Positions 24,946-54,842 of a stretch of DNA of 64,000 nt are shown here, piece by piece. How positions within the stretch are numbered: position 1 is the stretch's first letter; each line of letters opens with the position of its first letter. Below the pieces are notes generated by a model that had not been told where the DNA came from, made no database searches, and worked only from the letters and a program-made list of their open reading frames with translations. Made by a program: the position numbers and the translations under genes. This stretch comes from an uncultured Bacteriovoracaceae bacterium (GTDB lineage Bacteria > Bdellovibrionota > Bacteriovoracia > Bacteriovoracales > Bacteriovoracaceae), in contig CAXGUD010000012.1 of the NCBI GenBank assembly GCA_964012805.1, forward strand, positions 1-64,000. Direction: 5' to 3'.

Positions 24946-24988
24946 TTTTTTAAGGTCTTCCAATATTGTGGGTCATCCATATACTAGA

Positions 24989-37238: not shown

Positions 37239-39734
37239 CTAAAGAGAAAATTTTAAGACTTCTTTATAGGGAAGGATTAAATTTTGGTTCATTATTGTTT
37301 CATTTAGTTTACTTTGATCAGGGATTTGTTTGAATAAATTTGCGATACTTGTAAAAGTGGATGATTCCATATCTTTATGGATCGATTTTAATAACAACGA
37401 AATATAACTGGTCCTAAGAGTGATTAAATTTATGGTATGGTCAAAGTCTGGGTATGTTTTTGCTAAAAGTGCCATCCTTGCAAGCTTTGTCTTATCAATA
37501 AGATTTAAGTCCTGGATTAGGAATGTTTTTTGAAACAAATTAGATAATAAAATCTTCAAATCTTTAATTTTTTCCTCGATCTTACTATCAAAGGAAAAAT
37601 CTAATTCAATTGGGGAGAAGAGATTCATAACATTTCGGTAAAGTAAAATATAATCAAAGATGTCTATTAATTTGTTTGTTATTTCAACCCTGTGATTAAT
37701 TCCCTTTGTGTTTTCTCTTTTTCCATAATCCTTTTCACCTTTTATTGATGTATAGTCAAACTCTGCTGCTTTTGTGTGTATTTTTGTGTTCAGTGATTTC
37801 ATACTTTTAGTCTTGATATTGACTTTATCTATAAACCCTTTGTATCTTTCCATATGTTGAGGTACTCCATCTGCCTCACATAGTGGAGATAAAAAGAATT
37901 CAAGTTCTTCAATACTAGCTTGGATACTATTTTTTAAATCCAATATAACCGATTCTTTGTCTTTTATCGTTAAGATCTCTTTCATGAAAGTATAGCTTTG
38001 CTGGTCTTTTTTTGCTTCCTGATAATATTTCTCAAAGTCTGATATGTCTTCAACAATAAACATTAATTTTTCAACATTTTTTTGCTTGTTAAATATAGGT
38101 GAGTAAGAAATTTTTAATGTCCTTCCTTCAGGTCTTTCACTATCGGCAAATATTATAGATTGCGGAAAGTTAACTTCAACAAAAGAATAGTTAAGTTCAT
38201 CATCTCCAAAAACACTTTTAAAACTCAATAAAACTTCATCAAATTTTCTTGAGCCTTTTTGGTAGCTTATAAATAAAAATTCAAATACACTTTTACCCTT
38301 AATGTCTTTTTTAAATAATTTTTCTGAGTACGATGAAAAAGGAGGCGTAACCTTCAAATCTTTTCCCACATAAAAAATAGAACTTTCTAAATTATTTAGA
38401 AGACCTGATATTTCTTTTGTTCTTTTCTCGATTTTATCTTCTAGCTCATTATTTAATGTCTCTGCTCTTTGGTAGGCATAGGAAAATTTCTTCGAAATGA
38501 TATAACTTTGGATAAAGACAAATATACTGCTTGTGAAAAGGCTTATTCCAGGTGGTGGAACCATTTGTCTTGCTACTAAAATATCATAAATAGCTCCAAA
38601 AATAAGAATAATATTTCCACTTAAACAAATTCTTGAATAAGGAATATTTTTTATTGAGGCCCTTGTCATTTGGAACAGAAGATAAAATGATATTAAGATT
38701 ATAATGTACTGGTAAGCTTCAGTTAAACGTGTAAAAAAGGAAACTGGTGTCAAAATTGTGATTGCCGAAAGTAAAAGACCAAGCCTCCAATACCACTTTA
38801 ATAAAATATTACTAAAATAATTTTCAAAAATACATTTTAAAAATGTCAAAAAAGTTTGTCCGATAAGGAAAAAAGTAAGATATTCAAGTTTTTTTCCAAG
38901 GGCATAGGCAAAGATCCCTGGATTTTCAAAAAAAACATCAAAATATGAATTAATTGAAAGATAACGAATTGTCATTGTTAAACAAAATAAAGCAAACCAT
39001 AAACTCTCTTTGTCTTCTTTTCTTTGATAGAATATTCCTAAATGGTTTATCGCCATAATTAGAAAAACACCTAAGATGAAAAAAGATCCATGGTTATTGG
39101 TATCAAATTGTTTCTTTAGTTCGTTTTTAAGGCCTATTTTTATTGTTTTTAAAGGGCCACCATCTCGATGATAGAAGTTTGATACGTGGATTAAAATTTT
39201 GAAACTTTTTTCTTTTAAAATAAAATCATTAAAAAACTGCCCACTTTGTGGAGTGGAGTTATTAATTTTATTCCCAACTTTTCCAAGACCTCCTAAGTCT
39301 TCGTAACCATTTTTATAAACAATCATTATTTTATAGCTTGATGAAATCTCAGTTGCCATTAAGCTTAATTTTGTATCTTTGGGGATCCCCTTGACTTCCA
39401 GGACATAACTTGAATATCCATAATCTTTAAAGTTTTTTAAATCTTTATCTTTTCCGGCACTCCACGCACCTGGAATCTTAATGAGATGGCTATCTCTTAA
39501 CCTCTTTTCAATTTTTTCATTTTTGGGGGGGAGAAGTTCGTTCCAAAAAAATAACCAATCTCCCTCTAAAGAAATTGATTGTTCTTTTTTCAAATCTTCA
39601 ATACTTAAATCAATTTTACCCTTTTCCACCTTTCCTATGGTTAAAGTCTGATCTTTTGCATACCCAAAGGGAATTCCACTTGAAACCATTAGAAGTATAG
39701 AGGTTAGGAAATGTAATTTTAATCTTTTAAACAT
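37239..39734 (-). CDS. 7TM-DISM receptor, PAS-like core and kinase-less helical C-terminal domain
   Basis: LEGDWLFFWNELL, IPGAW and HVSNFYHRDGG extracellular motifs; 7 TM; LLNN..PPFS..VEDIS core; no HATPase boxes. Confidence 0.85.
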   Translation of the reverse strand: MFKRLKLHFLTSILLMVSSGIPFGYAKDQTLTIGKVEKGKIDLSIEDLKKEQSISLEGDWLFFWNELLPPKNEKIEKRLRDSHLIKIPGAWSAGKDKDLKNFKDYGYSSYVLEVKGIPKDTKLSLMATEISSSYKIMIVYKNGYEDLGGLGKVGNKINNSTPQSGQFFNDFILKEKSFKILIHVSNFYHRDGGPLKTIKIGLKNELKKQFDTNNHGSFFILGVFLIMAINHLGIFYQRKEDKESLWFALFCLTMTIRYLSINSYFDVFFENPGIFAYALGKKLEYLTFFLIGQTFLTFLKCIFENYFSNILLKWYWRLGLLLSAITILTPVSFFTRLTEAYQYIIILISFYLLFQMTRASIKNIPYSRICLSGNIILIFGAIYDILVARQMVPPPGISLFTSSIFVFIQSYIISKKFSYAYQRAETLNNELEDKIEKRTKEISGLLNNLESSIFYVGKDLKVTPPFSSYSEKLFKKDIKGKSVFEFLFISYQKGSRKFDEVLLSFKSVFGDDELNYSFVEVNFPQSIIFADSERPEGRTLKISYSPIFNKQKNVEKLMFIVEDISDFEKYYQEAKKDQQSYTFMKEILTIKDKESVILDLKNSIQASIEELEFFLSPLCEADGVPQHMERYKGFIDKVNIKTKSMKSLNTKIHTKAAEFDYTSIKGEKDYGKRENTKGINHRVEITNKLIDIFDYILLYRNVMNLFSPIELDFSFDSKIEEKIKDLKILLSNLFQKTFLIQDLNLIDKTKLARMALLAKTYPDFDHTINLITLRTSYISLLLKSIHKDMESSTFTSIANLFKQIPDQSKLNETIMNQNLILPYKEVLKFSL

Positions 39735-39740
39735 GAATAT

Positions 39741-39767
39741 TTAACGGTTTTTTAAGCACTTGATTTA
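39741..39767 (-). promoter_or_regulatory. sigma28 (FliA)-like promoter
   Basis: TAAA-N15-ACCGTTAA ending 6 nt before ATG 39734. Confidence 0.5.
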
Positions 39768-39975
39768 GATTAATGAAAGAAATTTTTTAATTAATTTTTT
39801 TAAAACTTCTTTCAAATTTATTTGGTAAAAAAGAGAGGAATAAGATCATTCAAATGGCAAAACTCAATTCCTCAAGTACTTTTCGGGCAATAAAAATGAT
39901 ATATTTTATTGGGTATTTATCAACTTTTGGTGCAGAAAAGACTAAAGGCATCAGTGAAGTGGAGCGAGTTTACAA

Positions 39976-40200
39976 CTATTCTTTTCTTTTTCCCCGCTTT
40001 TTGATGATAAGACCATTTAAGAAGTTTCTCAAGAGTTGATCACCACATTCTTTATAGTTTGGATGGTCCTCTTTTCTGAAGATGGCCGATAACTCAGATT
40101 TTGTCATATGAAAATCTACCAATTTTAAGACTTCTAATATATCGGTGTCTCTATAGGACAAGGCTATCCTAAGTTTTTTTAAAATGTCGTTGTTTGTCAT
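39976..40200 (-). CDS. DUF1456 (YehS-like) family protein
   Basis: MTNNDILKKLRIAL...CGDQLLRNFLNGLI. Confidence 0.88.
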   Translation of the reverse strand: MTNNDILKKLRIALSYRDTDILEVLKLVDFHMTKSELSAIFRKEDHPNYKECGDQLLRNFLNGLIIKKRGKRKE

Positions 40201-40516
40201 ACAGGCCCCTAAAAACCATGTTTCATGAGATATTTTGCACTTTTAGGTTAAAAAGACCTTTAGTTCAAGCTAAAATGTAAGATTTGTAGTTTTCTCCTAT
40301 TTTTGAACTCAATTCCCTGGCTTATTTAAAAGCCCTTTGAGTTTTTATTACTTTAGATAAATTTTTTGGAAAAAGAATGCCTATTTTATTGAGTTGGCTC
40401 CTTTTTTAAACTGTTAAGGCTTTTTTCCAGGAGTCCTTCTAGGGAATAATTCAAAGTTTGTCATTAGGTATAAAAATTTTATAATTGTGAAAAAAGTTAA
40501 TTTTTAGGATGCAAAA

Positions 40517-41473
40517 ATGAGTATTGAAAAAAGGATTGACCCCAAATCAAATAGGGCCTTAAAAGCTTTTAAAAAAAATTTACCAAAAGGACTTAATGGT
40601 ATTAAAGACATTAATGAAAGAAGAAGACTTCTTTATGAAAATGTACAAAAGATGAAGGCCATCTTTCCTCCAAGCACCAATATTCTTTGTGAAAATCATT
40701 TTACTAGAAGAAAGAATGGTGGTGAAGATTTAAAGTTGCGTAGTTACAGGCCAAAAGATAAAAAAGGAACCCTTCCTTGCCTCTATTATATACATGGAGG
40801 GGGGATGATTATGGGGACTGCTGAAAATGATGATGCCAATGCTTCTCGCTTGAGTGAAGAACTTGGGGTGGTTGTGGTTTCTGTTGATTACCGTTTGGCG
40901 CCCGAAGATCCTCACCCTGCCCAAATAAATGATTGCTATAACGGTCTTTTATGGGTTGAGTCTCAAAAAGAGAGTTTAAAAATAGACACTTCAAAAATTG
41001 CTCTTTATGGACAAAGTGCCGGAGGGGGGTTGGTCATTGCTACATCTATGATGGTACGAGATAGGGGGGGACCTGAAATAATTTTTCAAATGCCTATCTA
41101 CCCAATGCTTGATGACCGGCATGAAACGCCTTCCAGTTATGAAATAGTAGATATAGGTATTTGGGATAGGGAAGCTAGTATTGAAGCTTGGAATTGGTAT
41201 CTGGGAGGAAAGGATGCTGACCCTTATGCGGCACCTTCAAGGGCAACTGCTCTGAAAGGACTTCCACCTACATTTATTGATGTCGGCGAATTAGACTTAT
41301 TTAGGGATGAAAATATTATCTTTGTCCAAAGGCTTCTTCAAGCTGGGGTTGCGACAGAGTTCCACCTTTATCCTGGTGCCTATCATGCTTCTGAAAACTT
41401 TGCGCCTGATGCTGATCTTAGTAAAACGATTTGGAGTAAAAGGATCGAAGCTTTAAAAAAAGCATTTGGGTGA
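40517..41473 (+). CDS. Alpha/beta hydrolase, HSL (family IV) esterase
   Basis: HGGG, VDYRLAPE, GQSAGG, DLFRDE, GAYH. Confidence 0.93.
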   Translation: MSIEKRIDPKSNRALKAFKKNLPKGLNGIKDINERRRLLYENVQKMKAIFPPSTNILCENHFTRRKNGGEDLKLRSYRPKDKKGTLPCLYYIHGGGMIMGTAENDDANASRLSEELGVVVVSVDYRLAPEDPHPAQINDCYNGLLWVESQKESLKIDTSKIALYGQSAGGGLVIATSMMVRDRGGPEIIFQMPIYPMLDDRHETPSSYEIVDIGIWDREASIEAWNWYLGGKDADPYAAPSRATALKGLPPTFIDVGELDLFRDENIIFVQRLLQAGVATEFHLYPGAYHASENFAPDADLSKTIWSKRIEALKKAFG

Positions 41474-41518
41474 GTTTTTAAATACCTTTTGAATTAAAAA
41501 TGAACCCTGTTGCATTTT

Positions 41519-41941
41519 TTAAGACTTTGATTTTAAGTAATCAAAAAGTTCATTGAGACCTTTTTTGACTTTCTTCTTTTTTTGTTTAATTTCCTTGTCT
41601 TTTTGGTCGAAGCCATCTTGAGAAGATTGGGAAAAGGTCTTTTCATCTCTTAGCGGCTTTTTAGGGGAATCGGAGGTAAGCGCGAGGGATACTTTTAAGG
41701 TCCTACCATCAACTAAGGCTCCATTAAGTCCCTTTATAGCACCCTGGGCTTGTTCTGGTTTTCTCATTTTAATAAAAGCGATACCCTTACTTCTATCTTG
41801 CCCTGATTCCATAACGAGTTTAACGCTTTGGACTTTTCCGTATTTAGAAAAGAGTTTCTTAAGACCTTCTTGATCTCTTTTATAGTTAAGGTTCCCGACA
41901 TATACTGTTGAATCAAGAGTGTATTGTTTTTTTTGTTCCAT
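41519..41941 (-). CDS. RRM RNA-binding protein
   Basis: RNP2 VYVGNL, RNP1 KGIAFIKM, Lys-rich tail. Confidence 0.92.
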   Translation of the reverse strand: MEQKKQYTLDSTVYVGNLNYKRDQEGLKKLFSKYGKVQSVKLVMESGQDRSKGIAFIKMRKPEQAQGAIKGLNGALVDGRTLKVSLALTSDSPKKPLRDEKTFSQSSQDGFDQKDKEIKQKKKKVKKGLNELFDYLKSKS

Positions 41942-42171
41942 AATTAACTTCTTTTTTGAAAGGCTCTTTCGGCTTATTTTTAGTTGAGTAAAAGTACGTT
42001 AAATCTAAACCTTGAGCACACTATCACCCCTTTTCACAAACTTCTATGACAATTAACTAAGAGAGTATAATTTAAAGGGTAAATGGAGTTTATTTGATTT
42101 TTTAGTGTCCAAAATCCTTAAATTAATGATTATTAAGGAAAAATTGTAATAATTTCAGATATTTAAGCCTG

Positions 42172-42891
42172 TTAATCTCTTCTCCTGCCAAAGAGTTTTA
42201 AAAGATACAAAAATAAATTGATGAAATCCAAGTAGAGGGTTAGAGCACCAAAAATAGTCTCTTTGTGGTCCTCTTCTGAACCTTCATTACCAATAATATT
42301 TGATTCTTTTATTTTTTGTGTATCATAGGCAGTGAGTCCGGAAAAAATTCCAACTCCAATGATCGATACGACTATATCCATTGTTCCTCCTATGAGAGAA
42401 GGAAAAAACCAACTAAGAACATAAAACCCGATAATTCCCCATAGACCCATATGGCAAAAGGTTCCGACAGGGCCGAGGTCTTTCTTAGTGACATAGCCAA
42501 ATAGAGATAAACCGGCAAAACAAAAGGAGGTAATGAAGAAGACTTCTTGGACAGACTCTTGTGTATAAATTAAAAAGACCACAGAAAGAGTGAGCCCAGT
42601 AAAAAAGGCATAGAGTAAATAAACAAGTGTTGCCATGAATGCATTTATTCGTTCTATCATAGCGCTAAGAAAAATGACTGCTCCAACCTGCGCCAGAATA
42701 AGGCCTATAGATACAAATGGATTAGTTGCAATGACCATGACAATTTGCTGTTTGAGAGAAACGTAATAACTTGTAGCACCTGTAAGTAAAATGCCAAAAG
42801 TCATCCATTTATAAACACCGGCCATAAAGCGCGCATTTTCTTCTTTTATTGCCGTTTCACTTTTAGTTATGTATTGACTTTGAGAATTCAA
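42172..42891 (-). CDS. Bax inhibitor-1/YccA family membrane protein
   Basis: GYVTKKDL, AYDTQKIK, ALTLYLDFINLF; TAAT-N15-GTCGATAT sigma28-like site at 42950-42976. Confidence 0.93.
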   Translation of the reverse strand: MNSQSQYITKSETAIKEENARFMAGVYKWMTFGILLTGATSYYVSLKQQIVMVIATNPFVSIGLILAQVGAVIFLSAMIERINAFMATLVYLLYAFFTGLTLSVVFLIYTQESVQEVFFITSFCFAGLSLFGYVTKKDLGPVGTFCHMGLWGIIGFYVLSWFFPSLIGGTMDIVVSIIGVGIFSGLTAYDTQKIKESNIIGNEGSEEDHKETIFGALTLYLDFINLFLYLLKLFGRRRD

Positions 42892-43207
42892 ATTAATTCC
42901 TTATTAAAAAATGCAAGACTTCTAAATACATATTTCATTCGTTATAAAAATATCGACTAATCAGATTGTTTAATTAGATTATATTATTAGAGATATTTGC
43001 TTTAATTTTTTTTGTCTATTATAAAGATAATAATAAGTATTAAAACTAAGATTTTTAGTTAGATATTAATGAAAAAAAATTAATAACTTCCAACAACATT
43101 CTAAAAGTATAGCGGATAATTTTTCCCTTTTTGTTCCTTTTATTATTATTAATCTACTTATTTTTTTATTTTACGAAATACTACCAACACCAATTTAAAG
43201 AAAAAAT

Positions 43208-45919
43208 ATGAAACGTTTTCTTCAAATATTTTTTATCTTTTTTCCTGCAATTATTTTTGCAGAAGCTCCTCCCGTTGTAATGGAGAAGGGGAAAAATTTC
43301 TATCAGCTAGGCCTTCATTTAGATCTATATGAAGATAAGACTGGAAAGTTAACAATTAAAGATATTATTAAGCCTGAATTATTATCCAAGTTTGAGACTA
43401 GTAAGCAAAAGGTTCCTAACTTTGGTTTTACCAAATCTCATTTTTGGGCTAGGTTAAAAATTACAAATCCACAAAAAGTAAAAGGTGATTGGTATTTAAG
43501 TTTTAACTATGTTTTGCAAGATCGAGTTTCATTTTACAAAAAAGAAAATAATGATTGGATTGCCGAAAATATGGGGGATGAATTAAAGTTTTCAAGCAGA
43601 AAAGTAAAGGTGAGGCCTTTTGTCTTACAGGTGAATACAGAAAAGGATCAAGTCTATTTTGTAAAAATCAATGGAGGGCTAAACCAAATAAACCTGACAC
43701 TTGTTTCACAAAAACAAATGTTAATGAAAGAGGGCGAGGACAATCAGGTTTATGGAATATTTTTTGGAATCATCGTCTCAATGGTTCTTTATAACCTTTT
43801 TATTCTCTTTTCGACAAAAAGCTACAGTTACTTATTTTATGTCGTTTATGTTTTCTGCTATGGTTTATTTTTAGCGGGTTATCAGGGGTTCACTCAAAAA
43901 TACCTGTTTTATAACTATCCTTGGTTTAGCAATAATGGACTAAGTTTTATAATGGGCTTTTCTGAGTTGTTTCTTACCCTTTTCACGATGGCCTATTTAA
44001 ATATTCCTGAAAAGAATAAAAGATTAAATTGGCTTTTCAGAATGAGTGCTCTAGGAGGAATCGTTGTTATTCTGTCTAGTCTTATTAACCCTTATGCGGT
44101 CAATGTAAAATTGTTCTTTTTAAATGCAGCGGTTATTTCTTTCCTTGCTTACGGAACTGCCATATATAAGTGGGTTAAAGGTTATAGACCTGCAAGGTAT
44201 TTTACCTTGGCTTTTTCTTTTATGATTATAGGTAGCATGATCACGAACCTGGCCGTTGCCAATGTTCTTCCAAATCTTGCGCTTTTCAGGCAATCAGTTA
44301 TTATTGGAACGGCATTGCAACTTATCTTTCTCTCCATGGGATTAGCCGACCGTTTTAACCTTATTCAGGAAGAGGCCAAGAAGCTTCAAGAAAATTATGC
44401 GAAAGAATTGGAAAAAGAAGTTACAGAAAAAACCAAGCAAGTTGTTATGGAAAAAGAAAGAGCAGAGGCTTCAGAAAGAGAAGTTTCAGGTCTTCTTCAT
44501 AACATGAGGCAGTCTGTTTTTAGTGTTAATAAAGATTGTGAAATCATTCCACCAGTCTCCGAATACAGTTTAGAGTTATTTGGAAAACAAATCGTAAAAG
44601 AAAGTATCCATGACACTCTTTTTAAGGACCTAGATAAGGATGGTGAAGTTTTTTTTAAAGCTCGCTTTGCTTTGGCCGTTTCAATTGATGAAGACTTGTA
44701 TCAATATGACGCTCTTGCAGAGGACCTACCTAGTAAGATTTATATGAAAGATAAGAAAGGTGAAAATAGATCTCTTAAGATTAATTACTCACCAATTGTG
44801 GATAAAGAGGACATTGTTCAAAAAATTATGATGGTTGTTGAAGATGTTACTGAGTTAGAAAATTTAGAGAGAGAAGCTAAAGAAACCAGGGAACAATCGG
44901 CCAAAAAGATTACGAGGCTTCAAGAAATTGTTTCTAATGGAAAAAAGGAAATCCAGCTCTTTACGAGAGGAGCCCTTCTCAACCTTGATAATGCAAAAGA
45001 GTCAATAGAAACAACTGATTTAGATAAGTTGTTCAGGGCCGCCCATACGATAAAAGGTAATGCAAGAATTCATAATCTGGCAGGGCTATCTTCCGAAGTT
45101 CACGTTTTAGAAAATGAAATAGATAATATGAGAGGTTTAGAGGAAGGTACAAAAATTGAAAAAAGCAAATTGAATTCAATATATAAAAGTCTAAAAGCAT
45201 CCGTTGATGATTACCTTGAGTTATCTAAAGAAATTTTTGGTCAAGATGTTGATGAATCAGTAGTAACAACAGATCTTGATGACATGATTATTTCGAAGTC
45301 TCTTTTTACATCGAGCCTTGAAGAATTAAAAGAAATTAATAAAGAAATTGATAACAAAAAGATCCTTGATATATTAGTCAAACTAGAGCGGGAAGAGTTT
45401 AAAAAGTACCTCACTATTCTTCAAAAAAACGTTAATAATATTTCAATAAATTTAATTAAAGATATTGAATTGGAGATTAGTGGTGATGATGTATATTTGG
45501 ACCTTAATACAGCTTCAATGATAAAAGATGCTATCTTGCATATTATTCAAAATTCAGCTGAGCATGGAATAGAAAAAGAAGGTCTTATTAAAATTGACCT
45601 ATCAGACTCCGATGGAAAAATTGGAATTACTGTTTCGGATAATGGTTCAGGAATAGATCCTGAAGTGATTTATAAAAAATCACTTGAAAAAGGCCTTATA
45701 AAACAAGAAGACTCCGGGAACTTGAACCTTGATGAGAAGCTGTATCTTATTTTCCTTCCAGGCTTTTCGACTAAAGAAGTAGCTACAGAATTTTCTGGAA
45801 GGGGAGTAGGTTTAGATGTCGTTAAAAATAATATCGAAAAATTAGAAGGTTCGGTAAAAATAGAGTCATCTTTAGGTAAAGGGACAACGTTTCACTTGTC
45901 CGTTCCTTTGAAATCTTGA
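43208..45919 (+). CDS. 7TM-DISM receptor, PAS-like core, Hpt and CheA-type HATPase (no CheW)
   Basis: YEDKTG.L, PNFGF..S.FW DISMED2-like motifs; 7 TM; HTIKG (45044); HIIQNSAEHG, DNGSG, SGRGVGL. Confidence 0.9.
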   Translation: MKRFLQIFFIFFPAIIFAEAPPVVMEKGKNFYQLGLHLDLYEDKTGKLTIKDIIKPELLSKFETSKQKVPNFGFTKSHFWARLKITNPQKVKGDWYLSFNYVLQDRVSFYKKENNDWIAENMGDELKFSSRKVKVRPFVLQVNTEKDQVYFVKINGGLNQINLTLVSQKQMLMKEGEDNQVYGIFFGIIVSMVLYNLFILFSTKSYSYLFYVVYVFCYGLFLAGYQGFTQKYLFYNYPWFSNNGLSFIMGFSELFLTLFTMAYLNIPEKNKRLNWLFRMSALGGIVVILSSLINPYAVNVKLFFLNAAVISFLAYGTAIYKWVKGYRPARYFTLAFSFMIIGSMITNLAVANVLPNLALFRQSVIIGTALQLIFLSMGLADRFNLIQEEAKKLQENYAKELEKEVTEKTKQVVMEKERAEASEREVSGLLHNMRQSVFSVNKDCEIIPPVSEYSLELFGKQIVKESIHDTLFKDLDKDGEVFFKARFALAVSIDEDLYQYDALAEDLPSKIYMKDKKGENRSLKINYSPIVDKEDIVQKIMMVVEDVTELENLEREAKETREQSAKKITRLQEIVSNGKKEIQLFTRGALLNLDNAKESIETTDLDKLFRAAHTIKGNARIHNLAGLSSEVHVLENEIDNMRGLEEGTKIEKSKLNSIYKSLKASVDDYLELSKEIFGQDVDESVVTTDLDDMIISKSLFTSSLEELKEINKEIDNKKILDILVKLEREEFKKYLTILQKNVNNISINLIKDIELEISGDDVYLDLNTASMIKDAILHIIQNSAEHGIEKEGLIKIDLSDSDGKIGITVSDNGSGIDPEVIYKKSLEKGLIKQEDSGNLNLDEKLYLIFLPGFSTKEVATEFSGRGVGLDVVKNNIEKLEGSVKIESSLGKGTTFHLSVPLKS

Positions 45920-45947
45920 GTAAATCTAGAAGACTCAAATGATTAAT

Positions 45948-46334
45948 TCAGTAAGTGCCTTTCAATTTTTCTAAAATTCTTTTGATTGTGGAGACTAGAA
46001 TTGCTGGTTTTACTGGTTTTGTAATCCAGGCCTTCACGACGCCTGTCTTTTTGGCCTCAACAGCCAATTTTGGATGAGATTCTGTTGTAACTAGAATAGT
46101 TGGAATTCTGCAAATTTTATCGTTTTTACTTTGTTCTTTGGCAAACTCAATACCATTCATGGCCGGCATGTTGATATCGAGTAAGATCATGTCGATTTCA
46201 GTCTGTTCTTTTAAAACCTCCAAAGCATCTAGCCCGTCCTCTGATTCCAGAACTTCAAAGCCGGCTCCCTCGAGTATTGCTCGAAGGCTTACTCTTACAG
46301 ATTCGGAATCATCTACTATTAGGACTCTTTGCAT
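45948..46334 (-). CDS. Single-domain response regulator (CheY-like)
   Basis: VLIVDDS, LLDINMP.MNG, VTTE, WITKP; AGGAGG RBS. Confidence 0.93.
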   Translation of the reverse strand: MQRVLIVDDSESVRVSLRAILEGAGFEVLESEDGLDALEVLKEQTEIDMILLDINMPAMNGIEFAKEQSKNDKICRIPTILVTTESHPKLAVEAKKTGVVKAWITKPVKPAILVSTIKRILEKLKGTY

Positions 46335-46524
46335 GGATCCTCCTAAAATGATCATAACACTAGAAAGATATAAAACAAGACAGGACGCTTTTGGTGATTA
46401 TTTTGCTCTCAATTTAAAGGTTGTCTTTATTACTTGGTCTTTATTGACTGTCTTCCAAACTGTAATTTATAAAAACGCTTTTAATCTTAATCATCAACAT
46501 AGCACGGGTGAGGCTATTTATTTT

Positions 46525-47169
46525 TTAGAGAGTATTATTTTCTTTGAGAAGGGCAAGTGAGTGGTTTGGACCTACACTTGTATTGTAGGCCATATGAATC
46601 CAAAAGAGGGCCAAATTCTCTAGGTGTTTTGCCTCAGCTAAATCACCAATATCAACACCTTGAAAACCTAATTTAGAAATTAATGAGAGGGTTCTTTGCT
46701 TGGCCATTAGGTTATCACCTGCTACTAACATGAGAGTTGTTCCATCTTCGTAGCGTGGATTTTTAATATTTCCTGCCCCTGTATGATTAAAGGCCTTAAT
46801 AACGAAGGCGTCTGGAAGAAGAGAAGATACTTTTTCTCCTCCTGAAAGTCCGTCTTGATGATGGAGACCTTTGAGGTTACTGGTGAGTGGGTTTGTACAA
46901 TCACAGATGATCTGCCCCTTTTTGTATTTCAGTTCCCTCAATGCCTCTGGGACGGTTGGCCACGGGACCGCTAAAAAAATAAAGTCGTGGTCAGGGCCAA
47001 TGTCTTTAACTTTTTGAAATGAGACGAACTCGCGATAAAGCTCTTTTAAGTCGTCGTATTTTGTGTCATTAGGACTTTTTACTCCAAAGGAAACGGGAAT
47101 TTTCTGTTTAAAAAACTTTTGGGCAAGGGCCCTACCGACGTTTCCAGCACCTAAAATAGCAACTCTCAT
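46525..47169 (-). CDS. NADPH-dependent F420 reductase family oxidoreductase
   Basis: ILGAGNVG, LAVPW, DCTNP, KAFN, VAGD. Confidence 0.88.
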   Translation of the reverse strand: MRVAILGAGNVGRALAQKFFKQKIPVSFGVKSPNDTKYDDLKELYREFVSFQKVKDIGPDHDFIFLAVPWPTVPEALRELKYKKGQIICDCTNPLTSNLKGLHHQDGLSGGEKVSSLLPDAFVIKAFNHTGAGNIKNPRYEDGTTLMLVAGDNLMAKQRTLSLISKLGFQGVDIGDLAEAKHLENLALFWIHMAYNTSVGPNHSLALLKENNTL

Positions 47170-47400
47170 ACCTTCCTCAGGTTTGTTTTTAAATAGAATG
47201 AACAACCGTAAAGTAAAAATAATGTGCCGTCAATAAAGGGAGAGAAAGAGTTTTCAGCTACGAGAGCACAACCAAATGCTCTAGATATTACAGAAGGGTA
47301 ATGATTTCCTTATTATGGCATTCTCATTGATTTGGTATTGTGCGTAATGTAGAAAAGGTTAATTAAGGGGAAAGTGCTTGATATATTCCGTGGAGATTAA

Positions 47401-48597
47401 GTGGAAAAAGACCTTCTAGAGAAAAATATTTCAAAAATCTACTTACTTAAATTCTTCTCTATGTTTCTTATTTTAATGCCTGTTATTGTGCCTTTTTTTA
47501 ACTCTCTTGGGATTGGAATGAAGGGAGTATACCTTATCCAGTGCATTTTTGCTGTTACCGTTTTTATTTTTGAAGTCCCCTCAGGTTATATTGCGGACAT
47601 ACTCGGGAGGAAAAAGACCTTAATGACAGCTTTCTTTTTATCTGCTTTGGGTTTTAGCCTTTTCCCGTTTGCTCAAAATTTAACTCATTTGATTTTAGCA
47701 GAAATCATTTTGGGTTTGGGGCTTTCTCTTAGTTCGGGAACGGATACAGCACTACTCTATGATACCTTAGAGGCCCTTAAATCTAAAAAGGCTTATGTAA
47801 AAGTTTTGGGAAAGAGTCTGGCCTTTTTGTCTATGGGAGAAGGCTTTGCTTCTCTTATTTCAAGTCTATTAATATATTTATCATTCACCACTCGGGATCT
47901 GGCCGTTGCGTCTGCAATTTGCAGTTGGATACCCTTTTTTATAACATTCTTCCTTTTTGAGCCGTCGAGGCAAAAGATGGCAAATGAGCATAAGGAAAAT
48001 TTTAAGTACATTTTTAAGGAGTTATTTAAACAATCCAAGCTTTTAAGACTAATTGTTTTTAATATTGTTTTTTCTTTTTCAGGGACTCTTTTTGCTGTCT
48101 GGATGTTTCAAAAGTATTGGGCGAATCTGGGGATACCTCTTTTTTATTTTGGTCTTTTATGGGCCTTAACGAATTTTACTGTTTCTCTTTCTGGTCGCTA
48201 TGCTCACAAGCTTGAAAAGTGGTGGGGAAGTGCTTGGGTTGTAGCATTTATTGGAGTACTTCCTGTTGCTGGTTATTTTGGAATTTCTTTTGTTGAACAT
48301 ACTGTTGGGGTTTTAGTCTGCTTGTTGTTTCAAGTATGTAGAGGTGTTGGCCAGGTGATTTTAAAAGATGCTCTCAACAAAAGAGTGACTGGCGATTTTA
48401 GGGCTACAGCTAATAGCATTGCTCAGATGGGAGCAAGGGTATTCTTTACTATTTTGGGCCCATTTTTAGGTTTTTATATTGATACATTTGGTCTTTCGTC
48501 AGGGGCTTTTTCCATGGGTGTTCTTTATAGTTTCATTTTCATCTTTGCCATTATCCCACTTATTCGCCAAAGAAAAGACTTCATACAGTTTTCCTAA
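47401..48597 (+). CDS. MFS transporter
   Basis: EVPSGYIADILGRK motif A, SGTDTALLYD, about 12 TM. Confidence 0.92.
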   Translation: MEKDLLEKNISKIYLLKFFSMFLILMPVIVPFFNSLGIGMKGVYLIQCIFAVTVFIFEVPSGYIADILGRKKTLMTAFFLSALGFSLFPFAQNLTHLILAEIILGLGLSLSSGTDTALLYDTLEALKSKKAYVKVLGKSLAFLSMGEGFASLISSLLIYLSFTTRDLAVASAICSWIPFFITFFLFEPSRQKMANEHKENFKYIFKELFKQSKLLRLIVFNIVFSFSGTLFAVWMFQKYWANLGIPLFYFGLLWALTNFTVSLSGRYAHKLEKWWGSAWVVAFIGVLPVAGYFGISFVEHTVGVLVCLLFQVCRGVGQVILKDALNKRVTGDFRATANSIAQMGARVFFTILGPFLGFYIDTFGLSSGAFSMGVLYSFIFIFAIIPLIRQRKDFIQFS

Positions 48598-48696
48598 CAA
48601 TTCTGTTTCGAGTTGAGCTTTTTAAAAAAGTAAAATGGTTGTTTTTTTGTAATGACTATTGAATCAATGTTTGCATTGATTATAATTTAAAAAAAT

Positions 48697-49012
48697 ATGG
48701 CTAAAAAAATGCAAATGAGCAATATACTTGAAGAGGAAATGCAGTCTAAAATAAATCAAGCTGAAGGAAAGGCAGAAGAAATTTTAACAATTTCAAAAGC
48801 TACAGCTGAGTTTATTATGAAGGTAGGATGACTTGAGCCAGTAAGGTGGTGAGAAGCCCATTAAAATACTGCTTTCCCAGCAATATTTGTCTAAATTGAC
48901 CAAACTTGCTTATGGAGAAAAAAAGGTGATTCTTCCCGTTAAGATTTCAGATTTTGATTCACTTTTATTAAATATCGGTCTTGATTGGAGAAAAGAAGAT
49001 TTCAAGCTTTAG
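48697..49012 (+). pseudogene. Remnant of an SPFH/band-7 (QmcA/stomatin-like) gene, C-terminal part
   Basis: EMQSKINQAEGKAEEILTISKATAE, stop at 48829, frameshift, stop at 48842, then GGEKPIKILLSQQYLSKLTKLA...VILP. Confidence 0.7.
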
Positions 49013-49038
49013 TATGGAAACCATTTCATGGAGAAGAT

Positions 49039-49692
49039 ATGGCCTATAGAACGGATAACATCCCTTTACTTATAAAACCGCTTTACTTTGCTATATCTTA
49101 TATTCTGGCAATTATTGTATTTGTCTTTTTTATCTTTCCTCTGAGACTCACATTAAGAATTGATTTTCAGGGTAAAGAGAACCTCAATAAGAAACCTTTT
49201 ATTGGATGTATCTGGCATCAAGATTTGGGGCCAGTTTTTACTTCATTAAAAAAATTTGGTGTCAACCAAATTTGGATGAACTATCCTGTTTGGTATATGA
49301 AACCTATCCATTTTCTTCTGAACTTTATTGGAATCAAAGAACTCGTATTGGGCTCTTCTGGCCACAATGGAAAAGAAGCTGCAAGTAAATTATGTAGGCT
49401 TTTAAAAGAGAAAAATGCTTCCACAATAGTTGCCGTGGATGGTCCCCTCGGTCCTTCTAAAGTTTTAAAAAAAGGGGTCCTTTACATGGCACTCGAGACA
49501 GGCTTTCCTATTATACCTTTAACATTTGAACTCTCACCATGTTTTATTCTAAGGCCTAGTTGGGATGGAAAAAAGATGACCGTTCCTTTTGGGCGGATGA
49601 AAATTATTTGTCATGAATCACTTTATGTAACTGAAGACAATTTTAAAGAAAGATCAATACAATTGGAAAATGCATTGAATAGAGTTCCTTAG
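49039..49692 (+). CDS. DUF374/lysophospholipid acyltransferase-like protein
   Basis: WHQD, GSS...G, VDGPLGP, K.GV..MA, SWD...VPFG. Confidence 0.8.
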   Translation: MAYRTDNIPLLIKPLYFAISYILAIIVFVFFIFPLRLTLRIDFQGKENLNKKPFIGCIWHQDLGPVFTSLKKFGVNQIWMNYPVWYMKPIHFLLNFIGIKELVLGSSGHNGKEAASKLCRLLKEKNASTIVAVDGPLGPSKVLKKGVLYMALETGFPIIPLTFELSPCFILRPSWDGKKMTVPFGRMKIICHESLYVTEDNFKERSIQLENALNRVP

Positions 49693-49963
49693 ATTCTTCT
49701 TTTTCATTATTTTCCCTTTAGAAAGTTATTTAGAATCACCGTGACAAAATTTTCAATTATAAATTTCCTTTGCGCCATGTCCATGGCTACTTTTATTTGA
49801 TCTCTTTTTTCATGGCCGATAAAGCTTTTATAAATCTCTTCAGCGACTTTTTTGTCCAATGCTTTTTTTATCAGGACTATTGGTAATAATAATTTTAATT
49901 TTATTATTTTCTTCGTTAATAATATTCAGGAAGAATTCCAATACGTTTGTAATCTAATTTAAT

Positions 49964-50956
49964 TTATTTCTCTAAAATAAAATAATTCCACACTGCTTTG
50001 AAAGTATCTTTATTTGAAAAAGTTTTTTCCATACCTTCTCGTATAAGAGTTAATCTATCTTCTATGCATTTTTGGTCACAATTTTTACCTGTAACTTTTT
50101 TGGATCCACCAACCCATCCTATAACACCTTCATGGTAGACATTTATAAATTCGTACCAATCGTTAACAGTTGCTTCAATGGGGTGGTACTCACTAGAAAC
50201 TTCTTTAAGTCCTACTTCTTTAAAAATATCTTTGTAAAAATCAATAGATCTTACAGGAAGAAAATACTTTTCCCTCAATTTATCATGAGCATTCATATAA
50301 TTTTTATCTTCCAAAGACAAACGATATTTTGAAAAACGCTTATCTGTTGAAACAATTTCTAAAACAGCTTCATTAATTTTAAGAACGCTTTCATCTATAA
50401 TCCATCCTTCTTTTGCTGCCTCAGGGTTATTTATATTCCCAGATTGAATATAGATACGACCTCCAGGTCTGAGGATTTTTTTCCATGATTCGAGTGTTTC
50501 TTTTAGGTTATAGTAGAGGTGTATGGCATTAGTGGAAGAAATAATATCGATTCCTTTTTTATAAAAGTCTTCTTCTATTACTTCATGAAGGTATTCGAGT
50601 CTTTTTTCTTCTTTTTTGAAGTTTATAAGTCTATAAGCAACTCTAGGATCAGATTTAAGCTTTTCAATGGCCAGCCTTAAAAATTTTGGAGAGGAATCTA
50701 CAATCAAAATACCTAAATCAGAGCTTTTTCCAAGGTTACGTAACAATCTGTTTGCAAGAATTCCTGTACCACCAGAGTAATCTAAAAGTATATCTCCTCT
50801 TTTTATATCCCTACTGATTTGGTCTACGGTGTTATCCAAATTCCTGTACCATCCGTGGTTTTCAACCGTATCATATTTTAAGGCCAAGCTTTCTAAAGGG
50901 GCTCTCACCCACTCTTGTTCTGGAATAGTTTTAAAGTTTTTTGGCCACGGTAACAC
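49964..50956 (-). CDS. Class I SAM-dependent methyltransferase
   Basis: LLDYSGGTG motif I, VDSS, NAIH, ILRPGG. Confidence 0.85.
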   Translation of the reverse strand: MLPWPKNFKTIPEQEWVRAPLESLALKYDTVENHGWYRNLDNTVDQISRDIKRGDILLDYSGGTGILANRLLRNLGKSSDLGILIVDSSPKFLRLAIEKLKSDPRVAYRLINFKKEEKRLEYLHEVIEEDFYKKGIDIISSTNAIHLYYNLKETLESWKKILRPGGRIYIQSGNINNPEAAKEGWIIDESVLKINEAVLEIVSTDKRFSKYRLSLEDKNYMNAHDKLREKYFLPVRSIDFYKDIFKEVGLKEVSSEYHPIEATVNDWYEFINVYHEGVIGWVGGSKKVTGKNCDQKCIEDRLTLIREGMEKTFSNKDTFKAVWNYFILEK

Positions 50957-51198
50957 ATTAGCTCCTTAGGAAAGAATTAACCTTTGAAAGATTTACACTG
51001 TTGTTTTTAGTTTTCATAATTATAGTTCATTTTGGTGCCGTTTTGATCCTCTTTTTTAATTTTTTAAATCAAAAATACTAATTTACCAGACATTTTTTAT
51101 TAGAAAAATAAAGGTGAAAAATCATTTTTCATTGATATATTCCCTCGAAAGAAGGTATTCTAAATGATTTTTGATACCTTCCCCTAAAGGAGGTATAT

Positions 51199-52761
51199 AT
51201 GAAAAAGTTTAAACCACTACCATTTTTTCTTCTCTCAACCTCTATGTTATTTTTGTCCTGTGGTAAATATGATCTAGAATTCAGAGGGCCACAATTTTCG
51301 AATTCAAAATTTATGACAAATGTAAGTAATCTAAAGTTGAAAAAGGACTTTAGGGGCGTTTATCGTACTTTTGATGGAGAGGAAGAAGATAATTTTTTAA
51401 AAGGATGGCAGCATTGGGATAATGATAGGTTTAATAAAGTTCACATACCAAGTTCTAATATTGAAATTGCTAAAAAAAACCTAGATGTTGAAAATATGAA
51501 TGAAGTAATCGTAGCGGTCATTGACAGTGGCGTTGATGTTTATCACCCCTCTTTTAAAGGAAGAATTTGGGAAAATGAAAATGAAATACCTTATGACGGA
51601 ATTGATAATGATGGAAATGGATATATAGATGATATTTATGGTTGGAACTTTTTGGGAGAGGTCGAAAAAGAAAACTTTGAACTTACAAGAAAATATAGAA
51701 GGTGTGGAAACAACAATTTATTAGAAGGGGAAAGTAGGGAAGATTGCTATAGAGTTGAAAAGGAGTTTAGAAAAAAACGTAAAAAAGCCTATCAAAACCT
51801 GAATTATGTATCAAAGTATTCTAATTATTTTGGGAAAGAAGCCTATAATCATTACTATAACCAAGTTAACTTCTATTTAAATCCTGAATATAATCCAAGA
51901 GAGGAGTCTATAAACGGAGTACTTTATGATGAAGAATGGGGAAATAGTAATATTTTACCCAGGGATAATAGCGAAAGTCATGGTACCCACGTAGCCGGTA
52001 TAATTGCAGGAAGAAAGCATGGAGAAATTTCAATTGGAGTTAATCCTTATGCAAAGATCATGGCATTAAGAGTCGTACCTGAAGGTGATGAAAGGGCAAG
52101 TGATGTTTCAAGGGCCGTCATTTATGCAGTAGAAAATGGTGCAAGAGTTATTAATATGAGTTTTGGAAATTATGAGAATACAGGACAAGCAGAACTTTTA
52201 GAGGCCTTTGAATATGCCGCCGAAAAAGGAGTCCTTATTGTTCATGCAGCAGGAAATGATTCACTTAATATAAATAAAATTATTCATTCTCCAAGCCGAA
52301 AGGGAGGTAGTAAAAAATTACTTGATTCCTGGATCGAAGTCGGAAGTAGCACTTCAACTATTTATTTCAATAAAAGAAATCAAAAATACTATGTAAATTC
52401 TTCCTTACTGCCTTCCTCTTTCTCAAATTATGGAAATCAATACGTTGATCTTTTTGCACCTGGAAGTCAAATTTTTGCTCCAGTTCCTGCCGGAAAATAT
52501 GCTTCAATGAGTGGAACAAGTATGGCCGCACCATTAGTTTCTGGAGTTGCTTCTCTTTTGCTCTCCTACAAACCAGAATTAAATGCTGCCGATTTAAAGG
52601 AAATTCTTTTAAAATCATCTAGAATAGAATCATATGATGTTTACCTTCCTAATCAAAGTAAAGGTAGTGATAGTGAGAGAGTTTCATTTTCTTCTTTAAG
52701 TAAAAAGGGCTCTGTTTTAGATGCCTATAGTGCTTTAGGGTATATAAAAGAAAGATATTAA
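51199..52761 (+). CDS. S8 subtilisin-family serine protease lipoprotein
   Basis: FLSC lipobox; VIDSG, HGTHVAG, AAGN, SGTSMAAP; AAGGAGG RBS. Confidence 0.95.
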   Translation: MKKFKPLPFFLLSTSMLFLSCGKYDLEFRGPQFSNSKFMTNVSNLKLKKDFRGVYRTFDGEEEDNFLKGWQHWDNDRFNKVHIPSSNIEIAKKNLDVENMNEVIVAVIDSGVDVYHPSFKGRIWENENEIPYDGIDNDGNGYIDDIYGWNFLGEVEKENFELTRKYRRCGNNNLLEGESREDCYRVEKEFRKKRKKAYQNLNYVSKYSNYFGKEAYNHYYNQVNFYLNPEYNPREESINGVLYDEEWGNSNILPRDNSESHGTHVAGIIAGRKHGEISIGVNPYAKIMALRVVPEGDERASDVSRAVIYAVENGARVINMSFGNYENTGQAELLEAFEYAAEKGVLIVHAAGNDSLNINKIIHSPSRKGGSKKLLDSWIEVGSSTSTIYFNKRNQKYYVNSSLLPSSFSNYGNQYVDLFAPGSQIFAPVPAGKYASMSGTSMAAPLVSGVASLLLSYKPELNAADLKEILLKSSRIESYDVYLPNQSKGSDSERVSFSSLSKKGSVLDAYSALGYIKERY

Positions 52762-52762
52762 T

Positions 52763-52806
52763 TCAAAAAAAGAGGGAGAAGGCATGGTCTTCTCCTTCTT
52801 TTTTGA
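52763..52806. terminator. Bidirectional intrinsic terminator
   Basis: A7GAGGGAGAAG-loop-CTTCTCCTTC-T6 between convergent genes. Confidence 0.8.
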
Positions 52807-52844
52807 GTTCTTAGTAACAGATTAGGAAATTAAAATAAGAATCG

Positions 52845-54842
52845 TTATACTTTTTGTTTGCCGTAGTTTTTAATTCTATCTTCAATACTCTCTAATTTTG
52901 GTAAAATTATTGAGTACGGCTCAATTAGATTATTTTTAATTATAGATTTTGATAACATTCTTCTTTCCGGCATTTGTTTTACAAGGTTTGATAATGTTTC
53001 AAAATCCTGGGCCAACTCAAAATATCCAAGTCCTCTTAGAAGAAATTTGAGAAGGTTAGACCTTTGATGAATTAAATTAATTGTTCTTTCAAACTCAGGA
53101 TAAAGGATTGCAACTTTTAGAACTTTCTCCATCTTCTCATCGTCTATTTTATTAATATCTCTAACTAGAAAAACATATTCAAATAAGTTTTTAAAAACCT
53201 TTTCTAAATCATTTATCTTTTCAATCGCGATTTTAGAAAATGAAGAACCGAGATCTATTTTTGTTGGTGTGATTAAGTTTGCAGTCATACTATAATTAAT
53301 TAAATATTCAAAGAAAGAGCATAATATGTTTGTCACTTCAAATTGGGTGTTGAGCTCTTTACTATTTTCAATTTGTTGCACTTCTTTAAGATGATATTCA
53401 ATTTTAGATTTGAATAAGATAGAACAATCTAAAATCGATTGGATTTTTTCTAAATACGATTTGAAGTTATTTATAAAATGAGACGAATCGTATGTATCAG
53501 ACATGGGAGAAATAAAGTCATCGAGAATTTCAAAAGATTTTTTTAGAGATAATTCCAACGTTTGAGATAAATGAACCTTTTGGGGAATTGATATAATCTC
53601 TTTTAAATTATGGAATTTTTCTTGATCTTGATTTGAGACTTTTAAAAGATTCTCACTATCTGTTATATCCTCAGCCGTACACATAAGCTTTTCAATGGTA
53701 TCATTTCCATCTGAAATCGCCTTATAGGATAATTTAAGGATTTTACCCCTTTTTTCAAACTGATCAGGTATTGTAACTTTTTTGGGTAATTTTGATTTTA
53801 ATTCTTCAAATTCATTTATATTAGTTTCAAAGATCTTTTTAAAGGTCAATGAAAGTTCTATGTATTGTCTAGTTCCTTTTTTGAAATTAAAAAAAAGAAC
53901 CTGACTGATATGAAGCCCAACTATATTTCTATTAAAAAGAAATTCAGAAAAATCAGATACAGGAGGAAGTATTAAAAAATCACTTCCTATTACAAAAATT
54001 GAGACTTGTATGTTATTTAAAAGTGTCCCAATTTTATTTTTTTCTTCGTTTATTTCTTTCGTAGCATCTCTTATCTTATATTCAAGATTTTTTGAATAAT
54101 CTATAAGCTTTTCATGATTAATTTGAAGGTTTTTTTTCATTTTATTGATTGAATTAACAAGTTGATCTAGTTCATCTGGGTGTTTAAGTACTTTTCTATT
54201 TAATTTTAGATCTCCTAAGGCCTTTAATTTATTTAGATCAAGACTTATGGCGTATTCAACCATTCTATTTATATGACTAGTGATCAGATATCTAAAAATA
54301 AAAAAAACTAAGACTGTTGTTACAATTGTTTGAAATAGAATTAAAAAAGATTGGTCTATAACTTGTTTTCTCGTTTTTTTTAGAATATATCTATTTGTGA
54401 AAAATACTTTTAATTTTCCAAGATAGGCTTTTTTTGTTTCTCCTTCAATCTGATGAAATATTGGTAGAGTCTTCATAATGAAGCTTCTAGGGTCTTCATT
54501 CTTAAAGTTTTTATCTTCTAAAAAAAATAACTCACTGTGTTTGGAATCTAAATTATTCTCATTACTTACTTCTAAAAAAGATACTTTGATAATATTTTCG
54601 TCAGCCAAAATCCCTCTGAGAGACAAGCTAATTCCTTCTTCATTCTCTTCAAAAAGAGCACCAGCAAGAGGGGGAATAATTGATTCTTTAAAATCCCTTA
54701 ATTTTGTATTAATTTTTTTTGTATTTTCTTTTGAGAGTTCTAGATAATTTTGAAGCATGAAAGCGAGGCTAACTAGGATATTTCCTAAAAGAACATAGAA
54801 GATCAGTTTAGACGCTATAGATGATTTCTTTTTTAAATTCAT
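52845..54842 (-). CDS. 2TM-HAMP receptor, PAS-like core and kinase-less helical C-terminal domain
   Basis: N-half aligns with the 26692 gene (DELDQLVNSINKM, LLNN, PPVSDF); C-terminus aligns with the 37239 gene; TAAT-N16-CCCGATAC at 54883-54910. Confidence 0.85.
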   Translation of the reverse strand: MNLKKKSSIASKLIFYVLLGNILVSLAFMLQNYLELSKENTKKINTKLRDFKESIIPPLAGALFEENEEGISLSLRGILADENIIKVSFLEVSNENNLDSKHSELFFLEDKNFKNEDPRSFIMKTLPIFHQIEGETKKAYLGKLKVFFTNRYILKKTRKQVIDQSFLILFQTIVTTVLVFFIFRYLITSHINRMVEYAISLDLNKLKALGDLKLNRKVLKHPDELDQLVNSINKMKKNLQINHEKLIDYSKNLEYKIRDATKEINEEKNKIGTLLNNIQVSIFVIGSDFLILPPVSDFSEFLFNRNIVGLHISQVLFFNFKKGTRQYIELSLTFKKIFETNINEFEELKSKLPKKVTIPDQFEKRGKILKLSYKAISDGNDTIEKLMCTAEDITDSENLLKVSNQDQEKFHNLKEIISIPQKVHLSQTLELSLKKSFEILDDFISPMSDTYDSSHFINNFKSYLEKIQSILDCSILFKSKIEYHLKEVQQIENSKELNTQFEVTNILCSFFEYLINYSMTANLITPTKIDLGSSFSKIAIEKINDLEKVFKNLFEYVFLVRDINKIDDEKMEKVLKVAILYPEFERTINLIHQRSNLLKFLLRGLGYFELAQDFETLSNLVKQMPERRMLSKSIIKNNLIEPYSIILPKLESIEDRIKNYGKQKV

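Follow-up and report, generated by a model that had tools for sequence, protein, structure and literature searches.

Two receptors lacking a kinase domain

We analyzed a 64,000-nucleotide stretch (hereafter, the window) of contig CAXGUD010000012.1 from an uncultured Bacteriovoracaceae bacterium (GCA_964012805.1), focusing on the C-terminal domain shared by two receptors encoded in it, designated A and B (Table 1). Both are intact membrane receptors of a genus-wide family, with an output domain likely representing the tandem histidine phosphotransfer domains (Hpt1–Hpt2) of a CheA-like kinase devoid of the ATPase and of both phosphorylatable His residues. The corresponding open reading frames (ORFs), 37239 and 52845, were found at the positions given in the original prediction, on the minus strand, and all of the motif pairs quoted there were found in their translations.

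BLASTP alignment of A with B (32% identity over 406 amino acids, E 6e-61) covered the coiled coil, the PAS domain, and the entire C-terminal domain of ~245 amino acids and left the sensors out, in agreement with the earlier description of C-termini that align behind different sensors. The periplasmic sensor of B is related to that of the kinase encoded at 26626 (kinase 26626), and BLASTP between these two proteins showed 31% identity over 402 amino acids, with the match ending at residue 409 of B. The last 250 residues of A and B had no Pfam match, and the three other receptors of the window (22327, 26626, and 43208) carry HATPase_c according to Pfam. The stop codons of A and B are normal and directly face convergent plus-strand genes (36355-37221 for A and 51199-52761 for B), where a frameshifted kinase would not fit. 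The promoter scan scored close to chance (22 vs. 16.1 ± 3.6), and one 151-nucleotide contig of an RNA library matched 53102-53252 at 99%, which falls short of demonstrating transcription.

Table 1. Features of receptors A and B and of the reference kinase locus in the window (HMM, hidden Markov model; AF2, AlphaFold2; aa, amino acids; TM, transmembrane)
Feature	Position	Strand	Basis
Receptor A, 831 aa: extracellular sensor, 7TM-DISM, coiled coil, PAS, tandem pseudo-Hpt domain	37239..39734	-	Translation, Pfam, BLASTP, own HMM
7TMR-DISM_7TM membrane domain of A, aa 218-414	38493..39083	-	Pfam E 6.9e-18
PAS-like domain of A, aa 439-571; common to the CheA-like kinases of the genome	38022..38420	-	Own HMM; weak PAS_9
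Tandem pseudo-Hpt output domain of A, aa 577-829	37248..38006	-	BLASTP, HMM; G001 orthologue
S776 of A, phospho-His position of Hpt2	37407..37409	-	Alignment
Receptor B, 665 aa: periplasmic sensor flanked by two TM helices, HAMP, coiled coil, PAS, tandem pseudo-Hpt domain	52845..54842	-	Translation, Pfam, BLASTP
HAMP domain of B, aa 191-240	54123..54272	-	Pfam E 0.0012, below cut-off
PAS-like domain of B, aa 268-400	53643..54041	-	Own HMM
Bundle 1 of B, aa 406-526, in the place of Hpt1; poorly conserved	53265..53627	-	AF2 helices; VIA 3myf; no significant profile match on its own
Bundle 2 of B, aa 527-650, homologous to Hpt2 of double-Hpt kinases; conserved part	52893..53264	-	hhalign 83-84%; VIA 1tqg
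N596 of B, phospho-His position of Hpt2	53055..53057	-	Alignment
Kinase 26626, reference paralogue: sensor-HAMP-PAS-Hpt1(H479)-Hpt2(H617)-helical region-HATPase	26626..30126	+	Pfam, HMM, model
Hpt2 of kinase 26626, aa ~552-678; closest relative of bundle 2	28279..28659	+	Profile alignment, model
Single-domain CheY-type receiver downstream of kinase 26626; candidate partner class, putative binding	31403..31765	+	Pfam

Probable relationship of the shared domain to tandem Hpt domains

The domain matched no known unrelated family: Pfam returned zero families for the domain of B, and PDB sequences yielded only generic helical matches (E≥0.019). There was no match in NCBIfam, and an atlas search yielded nothing usable. 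Pfam Hpt was not detected above the cut-off in A, B, 26 aligned members, or the family loci among 61 genome matches.

The structural prediction of the C-terminal ~250 residues that had been proposed earlier gave two helical bundles with a predicted helix order resembling that of Hpt. The AlphaFold2 model (55 sequences; predicted local distance difference test [pLDDT] 90.8) was all-helical, with helices at domain residues 2-13, 17-38, 48-65, 70-87, 94-119, 127-152, 163-175, 179-199, 203-217, and 227-245, and the model of kinase 26626 (pLDDT 85.4) showed helices at model residues 2-21, 25-47, 53-72, 76-97, 104-132, 137-160, 174-187, 193-208, 212-233, and 236-263. The ten long helices of the domain and of the Hpt1 and Hpt2 models matched one to one by order, including the inserted helix specific to Hpt2 and the short turn before it.

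For profile comparison, the reference set comprised 22 long kinases of the genome, 20 of which have a second His-bearing Hpt after the first. Profile-profile alignment of the domain with the post-PAS region of these 22 double-Hpt kinases was collinear on Hpt1 and Hpt2 (score 46.1, E 2.4e-5), with control scores of 15.5 and 16.9 for reversed profiles and a maximum of 31.8 for 40 block shuffles, and the global alignment spanned 252 columns (E 1.8e-6). Bundle 2 scored 83.5% against Hpt2 (84.4% with 77 sequences) vs. 0.2% against Hpt1 in hhalign, and when it was compared with 95 paralogue-family profiles of the genome, the top two were both Hpt2 regions (34.4 and 31.8; third, 21.1). The weak similarity to the second Hpt of kinase 26626 (26692 in the original prediction) was invisible to BLASTP but was recovered by profile-profile alignment in the claimed register, in which N596 of B corresponds to H617 of the kinase. 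The description of the domain as His-less Hpt repeats is supported by controlled profile alignment, the one-to-one helix order, and Hpt matches in the fold search described below. Descent of bundle 2 from Hpt2 is well supported, and that of bundle 1 from Hpt1 is less supported: bundle 1 alone was not significant (0.7% vs. Hpt1 and 5% vs. single-Hpt kinases).

The VIA fold search matched the first half of the domain to 3myf (Z 9.5, root mean square deviation 3.2, 104 residues aligned) and 1a0b (Z 8.2), and the second half to CheA P1 (1tqg; Z 8.7, root mean square deviation 3.6, 103 residues aligned, 18% identity) as well as 2ld6 and 3kyj. These Hpt Z values (8.2-9.5) lie within the helical-bundle background, where unrelated chains rank higher, up to Z 11.2, and the true Hpt1 of kinase 26626 reaches Z 15.1 vs. 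CheA P1; the fold search alone therefore proves little. Foldseek gave no match at E≤0.001, and the top VIA matches (McbB, KslB, and designed bundles) were taken as helical background. An unrelated helical domain, resembling Hpt through amphipathic periodicity, would account for these Z values, for the pairwise identity to Hpt2 of ~11%, and for the failure of the domain HMM to find any kinase among the ORFs of the source genome at E<0.1. We regard such an origin as highly improbable, given that the domain occupies the same place after the same PAS, aligns collinearly across both bundles with an identical helix order including the insert, and is specific for Hpt2 over Hpt1, ranking 1-2 among the 95 profiles, and that the Hpt2 HMM reciprocally scores four family members over their full length at 15-18 bits.

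The PAS domain is present in the same ORF in 17 of the 19 family members of the source genome, and the domain directly follows this PAS, which is common to the 70 Hpt-HATPase kinases of the genome. In an unrooted tree, the PAS domains of the family form one group with a support of 80 (all 94 rows) or 92 (83 rows, leaving out four long-branch and seven non-kinase rows), which suggests a single origin of the pseudo-Hpt receptors. A double-Hpt kinase with both histidines also occurs in another genus (G023); this fits, as far as an unrooted tree allows, a double-Hpt kinase older than the pseudo-Hpt family.

Family size, end point, and purifying selection

Beyond the original prediction, the domain proved to be a two-bundle family of 19 ORFs in the source genome (G000): 14 intact ORFs have the full domain, another intact one (C44) has a shorter second half, three are in pieces, and a contig end truncates one. 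The congeneric genomes G001 and G002 (72% and 68% complete) contained 11 and 23 domain matches. The HMM census suggested in that prediction found real matches only in the three genomes of the genus among 238 genomes of the order, and a sample of 401 genomes of the phylum yielded no further matches; these searches scored 6-11 candidates per genome and may miss remote members. Two other matches were rejected: that in a fourth genome (G161, E 1e-4) was, by reading of its sequence, a coiled coil in an MlaD-like protein unrelated to the domain, and that in G348 contained internal stops. The whole PAS-bearing receptor set is expanded in this genus only (62, 39, and 62 matches vs. 0-2 in 38 other genomes).

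Database homologues were labelled Bacteriovoracales, Halobacteriovoraceae, or Bdellovibrionota and were called hypothetical, except for one annotated as a methyl-accepting chemotaxis protein (MCP; P0002, NCBI). The cluster-representative search used a profile of 661 positions including N-terminal columns and covers the best 150 matches, below which remote stand-alone relatives of bundle 2 may rank; short homologues were mostly on short contigs or marked partial. B has no close orthologue in the congeneric genomes, and a database protein of 663 amino acids is 72% identical across the domain. In three divergent members (G000:C44:4728-6602, P0071, and P0080), the second bundle has neither the inserted helix nor the conserved cap motif.

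No homologue continues into a kinase domain: a CheA-type ATPase was found in 0/19 ORFs of the source genome, in none of the 70 database proteins (those of 171 in hand that match the second half of the domain), and in 0/18 complete congeneric loci. Fifty-eight of these 70 proteins, some of them fragments, end ≤23 residues after the domain, and the other 12 add a conserved extension of 122-142 amino acids. Similarly, 16 of the 20 congeneric loci stop within 22 residues, two have the extension, and two run off the contig. The ~130-residue helical extension (G000:C27:21907-24078, 24343-26550, and 43066-44595; P0001, P0039, and others) ends in an LP..N.KFI.FL motif and matched neither Pfam nor kinases; its identification with the region following Hpt2 in the kinases was rejected, as it did not match that region. 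P0043 is not strictly kinase-less, having class I HisKA-HATPase and receiver domains upstream. This hybrid form, also seen in G000:C6:24877-28698, L023, and L053, comprises HisKA-HATPase (degenerate in the source genome) and receivers followed by PAS and the pseudo-Hpt pair, an architecture showing that the module is interchangeable with Hpt-HATPase outputs.

Five clear orthologue pairs with G001 were identified among 20 loci, most others being more distant paralogues. In these pairs, the proportion of nonsynonymous differences (pN) was 0.09-0.14 for bundle 2 and 0.06-0.32 for bundle 1, and that of synonymous differences (pS) was 0.50-0.76. Bundles 1 and 2 of A are 78% and 86% identical to those of its orthologue in G001 (pN 0.13 and 0.09 vs. 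pS 0.67 and 0.75). The domain is under purifying selection, and the genes are not decaying. The split copies in the source genome (3/19) would be expected if the receptors were functionless, decaying kinases, a view that is refuted for practical purposes by pN far below pS, and that also fails to account for the recurrence of the domain in both sister genomes (11 and 23 matches). The original argument that a shared end point speaks against random truncation holds for the family at large, with a common end in 58/70 proteins, a conserved extension in the other 12, and selection on the domain.

Phospho-acceptor site, docking patch, and conservation

The His predicted to be lost is absent throughout the family: N596 of B and S776 of A align with H617 of kinase 26626, and this site is occupied by R (34), K (33), L (4), Q (2), N (1), S (1), T (1), or I (1) in 77 non-redundant sequences, with His in 0/77. 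Across the 55-row alignment of the domain, His occupies at most 21 rows of any column. Relative to the His site, Lys at H+3 is replaced by Ser in 57/77, Gly at H+4 by Phe/Leu/Tyr in 72/77, and Glu at H+22 by Ser/Ala in 75/77. Conversely, H+7 is Lys/Arg in 56/77, H+8 Val/Gly/Ala/Ile in 71/77, H+9 mostly hydrophobic, and H+10 Gly in 46/77. In the crystal structure of CheA3 P1 with CheY6, the interface is described as comprising helices A and B together with R58, V59, L60, and G61 (PMC2817712), and the family residues at H+7 to H+10 match these contacts. Bulky H+4 substitutions in Ypd1 are reported to abolish transfer and to lower binding only modestly (PMC6341664). In the alignment, the family has thus lost the catalytic helpers of Hpt and retained the CheY-docking patch.

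Such a patch could also serve a sensor-gated phosphatase, in which bundle 2 docks phosphorylated CheY and hydrolyses it via a conserved amide, giving an input of opposite sign. CheZ, CheX, and Rap proteins act as phosphatases through a conserved amide. Polar residues on helices A and B are conserved in the family (D/N545 in 67, N552 in 73, E555 in 65, D/E585 in 74, and Q/N593 in 50 of 77). Phosphatase activity has furthermore been described for CheA3, a P1-containing protein, in a part of the protein that was subsequently interpreted as degenerate Hpt and kinase domains (PMC2817712, PMC10542144). Nevertheless, there is no exact family-wide acid-amide motif of the kind that we take to be DxxxQ in CheZ and ExxN in CheX, an entire subgroup as well as A lacks Q593, and the genome already has ~10 CheX-family matches. 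We consider a phosphatase decidedly unlikely.

Among paralogues of the source genome, bundle 2 is 39% identical (14 rows) vs. 22% for the kinase Hpt2 (22 rows), and bundle 1 is 22% identical vs. 36% for Hpt1; conservation has shifted from bundle 1 to bundle 2. The most strongly conserved motifs (NLFEYVFLVR, AKLYPEFD, and QMP) lie, by helix order, at one end of bundle 2, and conservation of this bundle exceeds that of working Hpt2 domains. This pattern, together with the lack of an adjacent receiver, would suit a pseudo-Hpt pair that acts as a scaffold, the conserved cap (helix A end, inserted helix, helix B start, and QMP turn) binding either a small molecule or a shared partner other than a receiver. 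The cap consists mostly of hydrophobic residues, which may belong to the core, and neither a recurrent fused or neighbouring partner in the 19 neighbourhoods of the source genome nor a fusion to any other known output among the 70 homologues was found, making a new output surface of this kind quite unlikely.

Genomic context and proposed mechanism

The source genome, 100% complete by markers, encodes 151 receiver ORFs, including 87 single-domain receivers, 70 PAS-bearing CheA-like kinases (sensor-PAS-Hpt-HATPase), ~10 CheX matches, 9 flagellins, FliM, and one CheA-CheW locus. MCPsignal had no match in the source genome or G001 and two in G002, whereas MCPs were found in 15/22 genomes from other genera of the family. 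No chemoreceptor lies beside the single CheA-CheW locus (C58:12277-15306), the CheA of which begins with a receiver domain. The sensors of the pseudo-Hpt receptors are drawn from the same pool as those of the kinases.

Loss of the Hpt His was also observed outside the family. In sensor kinase 22327-24963 (minus strand), the ATPase motifs look intact and Asn replaces the Hpt His (VNTVKN), and C32:8663-12403 likewise lacks this residue; both are possibly trans-acting or pseudo-kinases. A class of 30 'His-less' kinases labelled by a regular expression was rejected, as most read HTxKA and keep the His. A 172-residue stand-alone Hpt-like protein (G000:C3:10351-10869, minus strand; Pfam Hpt 25.6 bits), encoded between cheY-like and cheX-like genes, has Asp at the expected His and may represent a second pseudo-Hpt solution in the same genome; its C-terminal peptide presumably resembles the CheZ tail.

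We propose, at about even confidence, that A, B, and their relatives are sensor-gated pseudo-Hpt receptors that would bind CheY-type receivers without phosphotransfer. A ligand bound by the sensor would shift the coiled coil together with the PAS, and bundle 2 would expose or hide its docking face. Arg/Lys at the former His site may face the acidic or phosphorylated pocket of the receiver, and the receptor may thus sequester or read phosphorylated receivers. The outcome would be a negative or modulatory input, of a sign that we infer, to a network of ~70 kinases and 87 single receivers.

Several observations weigh against this proposal, in addition to the background-level fold scores, the non-significant profile match of bundle 1, and the split or contig-end-cut copies described above. 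A carries Ser and B carries Asn at the His site rather than Arg/Lys. Many of the best conserved residues (N552 in 73/77, F584, Y581, P625, and L639) are concentrated, judging from the topology, at the bundle's far end, away from the old active site, and this cluster could mean a new binding site. Moreover, a single-domain receiver lies within 2 kb of 0/18 family genes vs. 20/70 kinases (Fisher p 0.009 at 2 kb and 0.064 at 300 bp, for paralogues that are not independent).

Orphan genes of this type, without receivers, would also be expected of dominant-negative co-receptors, which would form heterodimers via the coiled coil and PAS or act as pseudosubstrates for the kinase ATPase, imposing a ligand-dependent brake on autophosphorylation. 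The family has its sensor, HAMP, coiled coil, and PAS in common with the kinases, as the alignment of B with kinase 26626 illustrates, and the best sensor matches are often kinases; a basic residue at the acceptor site might suit a pseudosubstrate, and kinase-kinase inhibition has a described precedent in RetS-GacS. On the other hand, the receptors lack the CheA-type dimerisation segment and ATPase, their PAS domains group with one another without pairing with individual kinases, and no sensor twin above ~50% identity was found. We judge a co-receptor function unlikely.

A broader reading is a two-sign network that in this genus would replace MCP arrays, in which ~70 kinases would load a CheY pool and ~19 pseudo-Hpt receptors would drain or trap it, acting as phosphatases or phospho-specific traps. 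We regard this as unlikely; if true, it would constitute a new chemoreceptor class and an MCP-free way to steer flagella.

Other features of the window and genome

Between Hpt2 and the ATPase, kinase 26626 contains an all-helical region of ~290 residues (amino acids ~690-980; window 28690-29560, plus strand) that was confidently modelled. This region occurs in the 22 long kinases and has a conserved Trp and a YLKxID motif, with no Pfam family above the cut-off. An aldo/keto-reductase-like ORF (window 30141-31376, plus strand) lies between kinase 26626 and its likely receiver at 31403. Elsewhere in the window, a 772-residue fusion (2303-4621, plus strand) joins a beta-lactamase-family (PF00144) domain to two allantoicase repeats and adjoins a malate-synthase-like gene (6521-8728). 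The source genome also encodes three tandem CheX-like paralogues of ~200 residues with an acidic 'GDIDFF/L'-type tail (G000:C3:97634-99576, plus strand).

Comparison with known systems and significance

The family shares with working Hpt domains (PF01627/CheA P1) and double-Hpt kinases the sensors, coiled coil, PAS, predicted helix order, and docking residues H+7 to H+10, but lacks the His, H+3 Lys, small H+4, H+22 Glu, ATPase domain, adjacent receiver gene, and Pfam Hpt match. The double-Hpt sensor kinases of the genome are what we take to be 'class III histidine kinases'. Relative to sensor-fused CheA-like kinases, family members have the sensor and the family PAS without the C-terminal HATPase_c. 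MCPs are likewise kinase-less membrane receptors with diverse sensors, whereas the output of the family is a pair of bundles rather than a long hairpin, and A and B contain no MCPsignal.

Plant pseudo-HPts are single Hpt proteins without a sensor, and the bacterial family differs from them in being a tandem pair behind a transmembrane sensor and PAS, serving as the sole output of membrane receptors in ~19 copies. Those of plants (AHP6 and rice PHPs) are described as lacking the His and as negative regulators of the phosphorelay (PMC11497342); the bacterial family is likewise Hpt-derived, by its predicted fold, and without His. His-less Hpt repeats in ChpA and CheA3 are presented as degenerate bundles of CheA origin with a role called undetermined (PMC10542144). 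Unlike the family proteins, which keep no His-bearing Hpt or CheA-type kinase, ChpA and CheA3 keep a His-bearing Hpt in the same protein. In Caulobacter, DivL is reported to reuse a dead kinase core to bind a phosphorylated receiver (PMC4211667). The family resembles DivL in keeping an output module after loss of catalysis, which by analogy may be reused for receiver binding; nonetheless, DivL keeps its DHp-CA core, whereas the module of the family is of the Hpt type, with no HisKA or HATPase in A or B. By these analogies, the family would work like plant pseudo-HPts or DivL. It falls outside working Hpt domains, CheA-like kinases, MCPs, and DivL-type pseudokinases.

A search of the open-access literature showed no paper describing this family or any receptors that fuse a sensor to a pseudo-Hpt domain. 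The domain family and the receptor type are real and undescribed, and databases call the members hypothetical or mislabel them as MCP. Here, His-less Hpt domains provide the only output of an entire receptor family that is under selection and whose sensors are shuffled, which makes the role of such domains directly testable on a small, well-predicted bundle of 125 amino acids. In this flagellated lineage with FliM, CheX, 87 single receivers, and no detectable MCP, sensor-kinase fusions and their catalytically dead siblings may run environmental signalling.

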